Origin: an uncultured Rickettsiales bacterium
GTDB taxonomy: Bacteria > Pseudomonadota > Alphaproteobacteria > Rickettsiales > CAIJLX01
Assembly: GCA_964414595.1 (NCBI GenBank)
Contig: CAYPXJ010000002.1
Location: forward strand, 22,328 to 86,327
Direction: 5' to 3'
Length of the DNA: 64,000 nucleotides
The position numbers were made by a program, and so were the translations under genes. Below the pieces are notes generated by a model. That model saw only the letters and a program-made list of their open reading frames with translations, ran no database searches and was not told the origin of the DNA. This document shows, piece after piece, positions 18,999 through 57,624 of the stretch. Each line of letters begins with the position of its first letter. The first letter of the stretch is position 1.

Positions 18999-19045
18999 TG
19001 GTTGCGGGGGCTGGATTTGAACCAACGACCTTCAGGTTATGAGCC
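18999..19045 (-). repeat. int-distal att repeat: displaced 3' part (47 nt, anticodon stem G31 to CCA) of tRNA-fMet
   Basis: tggttgcgggggctggatttgaaccaacgaccttcaggttatgagcc matches 57548-57594 at 42/47 positions. It lacks the 5' half of the tRNA. Sequence diverges immediately after ...gagcc. Confidence 0.9.
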
Positions 19046-19091
19046 CGCATACCCACATTCTATCCTATTGATATTTTAAGGGCTTTTTTAG

Positions 19092-19135
19092 GCGCGATAT
19101 GTTTTGTGCGAGATTTTGTGCGAAAAATTTGCGCA
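19092..19135 (+). promoter_or_regulatory. candidate arm-type recombinase-binding repeats (GCGCGATA; TGTGCGA x2 plus a degenerate TTGCGCA)
   Basis: GCGCGATA at 19092-19099 and TGTGCGA at 19105-19111 and 19117-19123. The same two motifs recur at the other ICE end (57421-57510). Confidence 0.5.
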
Positions 19136-19164
19136 GAAATCCGCTAATTAGGAAATCCAACCAA

Positions 19165-20337
19165 TTAGATATATTCTCTTCTTGTAACCTGAGCGATTAG
19201 TTTCCAAATTTTGTCGCTGCGCTGATTCATGGGATTACGTAGATCAAGTTGTTCTTCCGCCCACCGTATCCATTGCTCCATTGTTTTGTCGCCTAGCTCT
19301 CTTGAGTCGTCCCTAGGCATTTGCTTTAACTTTGACAGGAACCTACGGGCAGTTTCCACCTCTTGCCATATATTCGCCATATTGATGAAACATTGCCAGC
19401 GGTCATCTTCCTGTTTCCGATACCGCTCCTCCTCCAGGCGTTGTTGTCGCTTGATTTCTGATTGACGCTTTTCCTCTTCTTCTTGTTTTCTCCTTGCAAC
19501 AAAAAGAGGAATTGCGGCAAGAATTGTTGCCACGATATCCGCTAACATATCTTCCATTGTATGATTGGAAGATTCTACCCACTCATGGCGCATATTCTCA
19601 GGCAGCCAGGTTCTTATCGTGAACACCAGGCAACCTGTGGGCACCAACTCACGCATGGTGGTTCTGTCTCTATAGAAAACTGACTCCTTTTCTTCTTCGG
19701 TGAGAGGTCTGTATATTTGTTTCAGCTTCTCTCGCATATTGAATTCCACCTCTTCTTGTTTGAATTCTACAGCCAGCCCTCCCCTATCATTTTGCTTTAT
19801 CTTGCCGCCTTTTGCTTCCAGTGCATTAAACAATCCTTGTAGGATAAGGTGGATGCGCTTATCGGTTCCAGTTAATTTCTCTGGTTTCCATATTTGTCGC
19901 CGCACAGGATCGAATTCCCTCCGATATTGCGCCCATTGGTTCTCATTTTCCTTAAGCCATTTTCCAATGATAGGATGTGGTTTCACCAGTCGCTTTGGTA
20001 TATGAATACGCGGATTCTTAAGGCGCATCTCAGCTATCGCCGCTTTTACCTCTGGCCGCACCTTCTTATTTAATGAAGTGGCACGAATGTAAGCACCCTT
20101 TGGCGTATTTTCTTTCTGTGTCGGCAATTTTCGGGTCGTTACGTTATATCCCGCTGCTTTCTTTGCCCAATATCCACGTGCCGGATATGGCACGTTTAGA
20201 CGGTCACAGATTTTCCGCAGACCGCTATCCGAAACCCCATACTGACCAGCGAGCTTACTCATGGGTGTCTGCCAGACCTGAACATATAATTCTTCACGGG
20301 TGACTAGTTTCCCTTTTGATGGTATCTCAGAATTCAT
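19165..20337 (-). CDS. hypothetical protein (N-terminal conserved basic domain, central region, charged coiled-coil C-terminal part)
   Basis: 390 aa. N-terminus TREELYVQVWQTPMSKLAGQYGVSDSGLRKICDRLNVPYPARGYWAKK. Later RRKQEEEEKRQSEIKRQQRLEEERYRKQ. Divergent from the helicase gene and AT-rich. Confidence 0.6.
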   Translation of the reverse strand: MNSEIPSKGKLVTREELYVQVWQTPMSKLAGQYGVSDSGLRKICDRLNVPYPARGYWAKKAAGYNVTTRKLPTQKENTPKGAYIRATSLNKKVRPEVKAAIAEMRLKNPRIHIPKRLVKPHPIIGKWLKENENQWAQYRREFDPVRRQIWKPEKLTGTDKRIHLILQGLFNALEAKGGKIKQNDRGGLAVEFKQEEVEFNMREKLKQIYRPLTEEEKESVFYRDRTTMRELVPTGCLVFTIRTWLPENMRHEWVESSNHTMEDMLADIVATILAAIPLFVARRKQEEEEKRQSEIKRQQRLEEERYRKQEDDRWQCFINMANIWQEVETARRFLSKLKQMPRDDSRELGDKTMEQWIRWAEEQLDLRNPMNQRSDKIWKLIAQVTRREYI

Positions 20338-20495
20338 GTAGCCTCCCCTTGTCTTCTTTGCTAATCAAACTTCTCTATTATCAATAGATTAAAAGAAATA
20401 TTGGCAAGGTATTAGCATCCTTTATTATATACGCAAGATTTGCCTGAGTATTTATCAGCGACGCTAAAAAAACTTAGAATCAGAATGAGATACCA

Positions 20496-55949: not shown

Positions 55950-56105
55950 GAAGATGCTTATATATCTTTGAAGTGAATTTCTGCAATAGGCACTGCATTG
56001 TCTGCTTCCAGACTGCTGGCGGTGCTTCCCGTCCAGCGCCAAAATGCCCCACGGGCTGGCTACTGGCGGCTCGGCAGGCTTCCCCTTGAGCCTGACGGGA
56101 TAAGG

Positions 56106-57407
56106 TTAAGCCGGAACTTTTTCCCTGGCTTGATTCTTCTTAGTCTTTTTGTTTTTAGGCTCCGGTTTTTTGCGTGTGGTATTGACCAAGGAGGTATCGA
56201 TCATATCTTTCAGGTGCGCCGCGTAGTGTTTTTCAATCATTTCGACGCTGGTACGGCAGTTCTTCGCCACCTGATAAATATCCGCGCCTTCCAAAAGCCG
56301 GAAACATATATAGCTGTGGCGCAGACTATAGGCTGTGCGGGCTTTGCCATTTCGATCCAGCTTTATATTCTTCTCCGTGAGAATCCGGTTAAACATTTTT
56401 TTGTACTCACTCGGAAAGAGCCGGTCTGTCGGTTGCGTCGGCCGCGTCTGGATTATTTCTATTTCTTTGCCCTCAGCATCTTCCGAGATGACGTGTACCG
56501 GGCGCTGCCGATCACGCAGTCGCTCGAACGGACGCACCGCGCCGGGCATACTCTTGCAATAGCCGACACCCCTCTTTCCGCGTACTCCGATTTCGAGAAT
56601 CTTCTCACCGGAATATTCATCATCGACAATTTCTACATCGCGGAACTCGACATACTTCACTTCATCAGGACGCAGCCCCGTATTCGCCATGAGAAGCACA
56701 AAGTCGTGTAGCTGTTCGGCATACCACTTATGGCCTTTGCTCTTCGGATTCTTCGCGTTGTCACGGGTCGCCTGATAGAGTTGCTCGTATTCCTTCGGTG
56801 TGAACCAAGGCCGGTGTTCTACCTTGCTTTGACGCCGGTAAGGATCGGACAGATCAGGAAGTACCTCCAGCCATCCGCGCCGCATCGATGTTTTCAGCAC
56901 CATATTCATAGTGACCATTTCGTTATGGAGCGTTTTGCGGGCGGGTGGCTTCCAGGGTTTCGGTTCCTTATCCGTGGGCGGCAAAGGAACCGACTCATCG
57001 GGCTTCGGCTCCGTCATCCGATGCACACGGTATTCCTGCCACAGGCCCGAAGTGACCTGGTTCACGCTTTTGTCACCGAAGAACGGCATAAGATGCAGGC
57101 GGATGCGGTCTTTGTGACCCTGAATCCATTTCTGGCTACGGTGGCCGCGGTTGATGGCTTCATATTCTTCTTCAAACGCCGCCGCCGCTTCCGTAAAGGG
57201 TTTGCCTTTATGTAATTCGCCTGCCCGTTTCTTACCGCACAGTTCGAGATACCAGTCTTCTGCCACGTCCTTTGCGCGGGCAAGACTAGTCTCCTTCGTG
57301 CTCTTACGAAATTCCTGATTATTGAACGAAGTGGAGCAATGCCATTTGCCGCCGTCTCTGCGCCGGTAAAGGCTGACTTTATTCCCTAAAATTCGATGCC
57401 TTTCCAT
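56106..57407 (-). CDS. int: tyrosine site-specific recombinase (ICE integrase)
   Basis: C-terminal catalytic region NTGLRPDE...AYSLRHSYICFRLLEGADIYQVAKNCRTSVEMIEKHYAAHL (R..HxxR..Y). GAGGAGGAGGGG RBS. 140 nt from the tRNA. Confidence 0.93.
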   Translation of the reverse strand: MERHRILGNKVSLYRRRDGGKWHCSTSFNNQEFRKSTKETSLARAKDVAEDWYLELCGKKRAGELHKGKPFTEAAAAFEEEYEAINRGHRSQKWIQGHKDRIRLHLMPFFGDKSVNQVTSGLWQEYRVHRMTEPKPDESVPLPPTDKEPKPWKPPARKTLHNEMVTMNMVLKTSMRRGWLEVLPDLSDPYRRQSKVEHRPWFTPKEYEQLYQATRDNAKNPKSKGHKWYAEQLHDFVLLMANTGLRPDEVKYVEFRDVEIVDDEYSGEKILEIGVRGKRGVGYCKSMPGAVRPFERLRDRQRPVHVISEDAEGKEIEIIQTRPTQPTDRLFPSEYKKMFNRILTEKNIKLDRNGKARTAYSLRHSYICFRLLEGADIYQVAKNCRTSVEMIEKHYAAHLKDMIDTSLVNTTRKKPEPKNKKTKKNQAREKVPA

Positions 57408-57420
57408 CCCCTCCTCCTCT

Positions 57421-57510
57421 TGTGCGATTTTGTGCGAGGTTTGTGCGAGCTATTTTTTGTATATCACAGGGGGTTTTTCGAGAAAATAGGCAAGCGCCGA
57501 TAGCGCGATA
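57421..57510 (+). promoter_or_regulatory. candidate arm-type repeats at the int-proximal end (TGTGCGA x3; GCGCGATA)
   Basis: TGTGCGA at 57421-57427, 57431-57437 and 57442-57448. GCGCGATA at 57503-57510. Same motifs as 19092-19123. Confidence 0.5.
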
Positions 57511-57547
57511 AAACGTTGTAAATCAAGGAGTTGTTGTTTGGTTGACT

Positions 57548-57624
57548 TGGTTGCGGGGGGAGGATTCGAACCTCCGACCTTCAGGTTATGAGCCTGACGA
57601 GCTACCGGGCTGCTCTACCCCGCG
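57548..57624 (-). tRNA. initiator tRNA-fMet (anticodon CAT), integration target of the ICE
   Basis: CGCGGGGTAGAGCAGCCCGGTAGCTCGTCAGGCTCATAACCTGAAGGTCGGAGGTTCGAATCCTCCCCCCGCAACCA. C1xA72 mismatch, CAU anticodon, encoded CCA, cloverleaf folds by hand. Confidence 0.93.

Follow-up and report, generated by a model that had tools for sequence, protein, structure and literature searches.

How a large mobile element can occupy the only initiator tRNA gene of a genome, and which parts of the gene now in use belong to the host, are the questions raised by a 64-kb stretch of contig CAYPXJ010000002.1 from an uncultured Rickettsiales bacterium (64,000 nucleotides; the window). The window holds an intact tRNA gene with an integrase gene beside it, and 38.5 kb away lies a partial copy of the same tRNA. 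An earlier note, made from the letters of the sequence, had proposed that an integrative and conjugative element (ICE) was captured there. The interval between the copies (19046-57594) is a complete P-type ICE of 38.5 kb. A recombinase gene lies at the end adjoining an attachment (att) site, direct att repeats flank the interval, and a relaxase, a coupling protein, a VirB4-class ATPase and a full mating-pair-formation set are encoded. The analysis strongly favors the view that this single 38.5-kb ICE integrated, through recombination by its tyrosine integrase, into the one initiator tRNA gene of the genome and left a chimeric initiator tRNA.

The initiator tRNA gene and its partial copy

ARAGORN reported one tRNA in the window, a tRNA-Met(CAT) at 57548-57624 on the minus strand. 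Its initiator identity was indicated by the CAU anticodon, a C1-A72 mismatch, a G/C-rich acceptor stem and an A11:U24 pair, and position 1 was unpaired in the predicted fold, in agreement with the C1-A72 mark of initiators. The base of the anticodon stem lacks the canonical run of three G:C pairs; pairs 30:40 and 31:39 are G:C and 29:41 is A:U. Because A29:U41 with only two G:C pairs was also present in nearly all initiator tRNAs sampled from the order and the class, the two-G:C stem is a lineage trait and not a defect of this gene.

The partial copy, 47 nt from the 3' part of the tRNA, was located at 18999-19045 (minus strand) and is identical to 57548-57594 at 42 of 47 positions. The pair forms the longest direct repeat reported in the window (18998-19045 and 57547-57594; with one flanking base counted, 48 nt at 90% identity). 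The fragment has the same orientation as the intact gene, starts at the anticodon stem-loop and spans standard positions 30-76. All five mismatches fall in the T arm, at standard positions 50, 51, 57, 63 and 64. Compared with the remnant, the working gene has G-C in place of U-G at pair 50:64, A-U in place of U-A at pair 51:63, and G in place of A at loop base 57. Read in the tRNA orientation, the remnant has the T stem GTTGG/CCAGC and the loop TTCAAAT, and the working gene has GGAGG/CCTCC and TTCGAAT. A 5-bp T stem is kept in both, and folding of both full-length versions gave the same cloverleaf.

A perfect 20-nt identity block (19026-19045, minus strand; counterpart 57575-57594) runs from G30-G31 through the anticodon loop, the 3' side of the anticodon stem and the variable loop to G49. 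Beyond G30 on the upstream side the two copies are unrelated. The block is conserved among the initiator tRNAs sampled, with single-base variants in a few. Strand exchange must have taken place inside it.

Sequence reading, the repeat search and folding agreed with what the earlier note had described, namely 47-nt direct repeats with 42 identities, a perfect 20-nt block over the anticodon and variable loops, and five mismatches confined to the T arm with pairing intact in both versions. The repeat had been said to run from G31 of the anticodon stem to CCA; its start is standard G30, which is linear position 31 owing to an extra base in the D loop. The note had also placed the crossover at the anticodon loop. 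It can be bounded to the 20-nt identical block (positions 30-49), and analogy with other anticodon-centered islands suggests the loop itself.

Origin of the two T arms

The host genome (1.8 Mb, 99 contigs) was compared with 40 relatives of its order, giving 41 genomes in all, most of which have a single initiator tRNA gene. The host has exactly one full initiator gene plus the remnant, and these are the only two tRNA-derived segments on the contig. Taken together, the 5' half of the window gene and the remnant are identical at 77 of 77 positions to the initiator tRNA of G001, the only genome of the same family. The same 77/77 identity was obtained with G007 and G027, order relatives without any partial copy; the initiator tRNA of G022 differs by one D-stem base. 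The topology of site-specific integration makes the far-end fragment the host's displaced 3' part, and makes the gene adjoining the integrase a joint of host 5' part and element 3' part. Since this topology and the relatives' tRNA identity agree, the remnant is assigned the native arm and the working tRNA is regarded, from comparative sequence, as a host-5'/ICE-3' chimera.

On this assignment, 18999-19045 represents the displaced 3' fragment of the original host initiator tRNA, with its native T arm and 47/47 identity to G001, G007 and G027, and marks the integrase-distal att junction. The segment 57548-57594 (minus strand), from the tRNA call and the comparison of the copies, represents the ICE-supplied 3' part of the working gene, foreign T arm included. 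The remaining 57595-57624 (minus strand), identical to the same three genomes, represents the host-derived 5' part, with the 5' strand of the acceptor stem, the D arm and the start of the anticodon stem.

Partial copies of the initiator tRNA were present in 10 of the 41 genomes. The T arm differed between the copies in four of the eight genomes that could be compared (G000, G005, G009 and G036, with G005 less certain as its gene contains N's). Two of these, G009 (L041) and G036 (L042), belong to different families. Their element ends are nearly identical and their working genes have the same T arm, with different remnant arms. This pattern is expected if the arm travels with the element, and it gives a separate instance in which native arms were replaced by one that the element brought. 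No homologue of the window's integrase or transfer genes was found in the islands at tRNA-fMet of the order relatives, so several integrase types seem to use the initiator tRNA gene.

Reference genomes were also scanned for the exact 47-mer supplied by the ICE, with Y accepted at 41 and R at 57. More than 120 stretches, in genomes of many phyla, contained it; almost all were complete native tRNAs, and only one had a related integrase beside it. Naming a donor from the ICE-type arm was rejected on this ground. Because excision returns the arm to the element, the arm would reflect the history of the element and not its last host.

These comparisons bear out most of the earlier interpretation. 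The interval was called an ICE, and a complete integrase, Tra and Trb set was found; the working tRNA was called a chimera, and the intact gene does lie beside the integrase with a displaced 3' fragment at the far end; the remnant was held to preserve the host's original T arm, and that arm is carried by the same-family genome. The note had asked which T arm island-free relatives carry, and G007 and G027 have the remnant type. Its proposal that the ICE came from a lineage with a different tRNA-fMet holds in that the arm is foreign to the host, and gives nothing firm on the immediate donor, the 47-mer being native in many phyla. As to its remark that an initiator tRNA is a notable attB, the site is a common one in the group, in view of the 10 genomes with partial copies.

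The integrase, its relatives and the ends of the element

The tyrosine integrase gene (56106-57407, minus strand) lies 140 nt from the 3' end of the tRNA. By homology its 433-aa product is full length with the clade-conserved residues of the catalytic region. The Pfam match was below the gathering score (23.9 vs 27.1 bits); homologues carry PF00589, the conserved Arg, His/Arg and Tyr motifs are present, and the integrase is judged from its sequence to be intact. A PDB sequence search with it gave no match. Homologues at ~70% identity number in the thousands, the named ones mainly from Sinorhizobium, Hyphomonas, Qipengyuania and Ruegeria, and 19 genomes in a sample of 401 from the class contained a homologue at E<=1e-80. 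At least eight of the closest homologues (54-70% identity) directly adjoin a tRNA-Met(CAT) gene that is an initiator by sequence, and more distant ones adjoin tRNA-Leu or tRNA-Arg.

Seven genomes of the integrase clade have a far-end remnant 15-32 kb away. These remnants begin at the anticodon stem-loop, with linear position 31 or 33 as the first base except in G223, whose decayed fragment begins at 26. The clade relatives keep the same repeat and end architecture, which settles favorably the earlier question of repeat conservation in related elements. The remnant arm equals the working arm in all seven, and the T-arm mismatch of the window is therefore an exception within the clade. The T stems beside clade integrases vary widely, and the anticodon-to-variable-loop block is constant but for one variable-loop base at one locus. 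This fits recognition of the block by the integrase.

Other arrangements were seen among these relatives. At the initiator tRNA of G234 (G234:C1:2908198-2945402) two islands are arrayed in tandem and two remnants follow one another; 1.6 kb from this tRNA gene lies another that is initiator-like and divergent. G304 (G304:C6:90700-91000) has a clade integrase, with 64% identity over residues 1-303, directly downstream of a fragment that comprises positions 1-45 of the initiator tRNA, its 5' part; another copy begins at the contig end, 15 kb downstream. From this arrangement the G304 element seems to supply the 5' half of the tRNA instead of the 3' half. In several clade relatives (L171, L174, L182), the element DNA right after CCA opens with a hairpin followed by T's, so that there the element would also supply the tRNA terminator. 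No clear hairpin was seen at the corresponding place after CCA in the window.

Both ends of the window element contain short repeats. The integrase-distal arm (19046-19135, minus strand) has an ATCAA..GATAG-type motif at 19060-19072 and TGTGCGA heptamers at 19105-19111 and 19117-19123, and relatives have ..CACA heptamers at the same positions. The integrase-proximal arm (57408-57547, minus strand) has TGTGCGA at 57421-57427, 57431-57437 and 57442-57448, spaced 10-11 nt apart. Five of the seven TGTGCGA copies in the 64 kb thus lie within ~130 nt of the two ends of the element, on the same strand and with a spacing of 10-12 nt. Their total number is not above chance, whereas their placement exceeds it, with a probability of the order of 1e-10, roughly estimated post hoc, for five of seven in ~260 nt. 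Direct ..CACA heptamers, two or three of them, occur at both matching places in each of the seven clade relatives examined, the heptamer varying by element, and most of these relatives have the ATCAA..GATAG-type motif 15-30 nt from the core. The end heptamers are likely arm-type integrase sites, and they would tie both ends of the window element to one integration module.

Transfer genes and cargo

Going away from the tRNA, the element comprises the integrase gene, ArdC, cargo, an oriT-like palindrome, traJ/traI/traG/traF, trbB to trbM, and ~10 kb of low-GC defence-like cargo (GC, guanine plus cytosine; oriT, origin of transfer). Profile matches identified the P-type mating-pair-formation operon trbB-C-D-E-F(VirB8)-G(CagX)-H-I-J-L-M at 29279-39471 on the plus strand. 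The DNA-transfer genes, identified by profile and homology matches, occupy 39427-43987 on the minus strand: traF (39427-39996), traG for the coupling protein (39993-41822; T4SS-DNA_transf, 442 bits), traI for a MOBP relaxase (41823 to about 43646; NF041893, 475 bits vs a cutoff of 250) and traJ (43643-43987). The longest open reading frame of traI extends over 41823-43895 (690 aa, TTG start) and overlaps traJ. The gene call supplied with the source, like every homologue, gives ~607 aa, which places the true start near 43646. The best TraI relatives anywhere were metagenome proteins with 64-66% identity, and no close relaxase relative was found in 400 sampled genomes of the class, so that these searches yielded no sister ICE in which the arm could be followed along with the element.

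A candidate oriT was read from the sequence at 44054-44085 (plus strand), where a perfect 20-bp palindrome is followed by a nick-like region containing ATCCTG, which we take to correspond to the IncP nick core. An ArdC-like antirestriction/zincin protein is encoded at 53997-54905 on the minus strand (profile match).

The remaining cargo was annotated by profile matches. The low-GC segment at 19165-29241 encodes a 390-aa protein, a 1398-aa superfamily 1 (SF1) helicase, a DUF4236 protein, XRE regulators, a protein resembling a methyl-directed restriction endonuclease and a SIR2-like protein. The SF1 helicase matches the Mokosh MkoA/MkoC, Hhe and PDC-S37 models, and a 172-aa protein strongly matches a type II methyl-directed restriction enzyme model (188 bits), with the weak SIR2-like protein adjoining it. 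These integrase-distal genes (20496-24692 and 27640-29241) look like defence genes. Further cargo at 44207-53983 includes XRE regulators, an N6/N4 DNA methylase, GNAT, a TonB-dependent receptor, an FAD oxidase, a YfiR-like protein and an AT-rich WYL-containing cassette. The cassette (52136-53983) has 37% GC and three genes; one product is small and WYL-like, another (301 aa) matched no family, and the third is weakly PRTase-like.

Proposed integration mechanism and alternative explanations

In the proposed mechanism, attP would carry a tRNA copy from the anticodon stem-loop to CCA, and strand exchange would occur within the shared 20-nt block, between the anticodon loop and the variable loop. 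The host promoter and 5' half would be joined to the 3' half of the element and so regenerate a working gene, and the host's own 3' half would be displaced by 38.5 kb as a dead fragment. With a T stem in the element copy that is different but fully paired, the sole initiator tRNA would now be chimeric. The heptamer repeats ~60-130 nt inside both ends would act as arm-type integrase sites, and the P-type Trb/Tra set with oriT would move the excised circle. Excision and transfer may still occur at present.

Several results weigh against this account. No island-free genome with the same flanking genes was found in the sample, and flank synteny with relatives gave no usable empty site; in G001 the left-flank glycosyltransferase of the window lies on another contig. 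The word native therefore refers to tRNA identity and not to synteny. Metagenome scans gave 0 matches for an island-free version of the locus (T arm left free) and 0 for the integrase-proximal ICE end joined to the acceptor strand, and neither the excised circle nor the empty site was observed in them. Profile searches recognised no excisionase among the element proteins, and the GC mosaic allows an accreted or composite history.

A composite could have formed if an ICE fused to an older low-GC defence island after loss of an internal att site, the far-end remnant then belonging to the older island. The sharp GC steps, from 38-44% at 20-30 kb to 56-57% at 30-44 kb, are as such a fusion would leave them, and tandem arrays at this site exist elsewhere, as in G234 with its two remnants. 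However, the contig has only two tRNA-derived segments, the same heptamer repeat occurs at both ends with the clade-typical motif at the integrase-distal one, and cargo of differing GC inside one ICE is usual; a composite origin is considered unlikely. Base composition also enters into the suspicion of a metagenome misassembly, in which the contig would join the DNA of two organisms through the conserved tRNA sequence. The assembly is in 99 contigs, tRNA-fMet is nearly identical across taxa, and the transfer core of the ICE has 56-57% GC against ~45% in the flanks. Yet both flanks have equal GC, the junctions have the exact att architecture of the clade, and at the integrase-distal junction the shared stretch ahead of the host-type arm is only 20 nt, shorter than assembly joins normally require; an artefact of this kind is extremely improbable.

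Equally little credence is given to a T-arm difference that arose after integration, through drift in the unused remnant or gene conversion, with the working arm as the native one. An unused remnant is free to mutate, and that of G223 has decayed inside the anticodon loop. The remnant of the window, however, is 47/47 identical to live initiator tRNAs of several relatives and has a perfect stem through two double changes, a sequence that drift would not recreate. Entry of a single ICE into the initiator tRNA gene is thus the preferred explanation. A further conjecture, which we consider very unlikely, is that the T-arm swap of the sole initiator tRNA is not neutral and alters its stability, modification or susceptibility to tRNA-directed nucleases. 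Such an effect is conceivable because the stem is stronger (all-G:C-flanked) and a loop base is changed, and if real, it would mean that the integrated ICE changes host translation initiation or gains a selective hold on its host.

Comparison with known systems

The locus provides a clean, fully delimited example of an island rebuilding an essential single-copy tRNA gene, in which the shares of host and element are directly visible. It also suggests that, across one bacterial class, a clade of integrases with a conserved layout of arm sites is dedicated to the initiator tRNA; with a nearly invariant 20-nt target, the potential host range of such elements would be very broad. The four chimeras in the order, that of G005 less certain, amount to natural T-arm swap experiments in an initiator tRNA. 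The current understanding of integration at tRNA sites is unchanged. Literature searches returned no paper that draws attention to initiator tRNA in particular as a site for ICEs.

The transfer genes resemble those of the IncP-1 plasmids (RP4 type; pAKD4 and relatives) in the order trbB to trbM and traJ-I-G-F, in a MOBP TraI with the same domain set, and in an oriT with a palindrome and an ATCCTG nick-like sequence. Among plasmids TraI is closest to IncP-1 TraI, but it is only ~44% identical, and the element differs from these plasmids in being chromosomal, with an integrase and att sites. From this identity its transfer system is placed outside the IncP-1 group, though it would work in the IncP-1 manner (the trfA/oriV module was not searched for).

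In Mesorhizobium, ICEs and integrative and mobilizable elements lie next to tRNA-Met genes, and ICEMlSymR7A lies at the sole phe-tRNA gene (PMC8627217, PMC5882170). These are likewise alphaproteobacterial elements with P-type (Trb) transfer genes, and their tyrosine integrases act at the 3' parts of tRNA genes, including a sole-copy gene. ICEMlSymR7A uses a 17-bp core at the 3' end of the tRNA, in contrast to the anticodon-centered site described here, and whether the tRNA-Met target is an initiator is not stated in either paper.

The closest parallel is with the islands treated in PMC4383910, where attP holds a tDNA (tRNA gene) fragment, the gene is restored on integration and the piece that is displaced comes to mark the far end. 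That survey, which sorts tDNAs with a CAT anticodon into initiator, elongator and Ile classes and relays the sublocation classes of Williams 2002, found 2083 of 3919 islands to be anticodon-centered. The window element shares with such Islander-type islands (class A) an integrase beside the regenerated tRNA, a 3' part supplied by the element and a direct-orientation far-end fragment that begins at the anticodon stem-loop. No mechanistic difference was seen; the particulars here are two compensated T-stem pairs and one loop base that differ, and a single-copy initiator tRNA as target. The case is one of textbook anticodon-centered tDNA integration, and an unusually clear example because the T arm of the element differs from that of the host.

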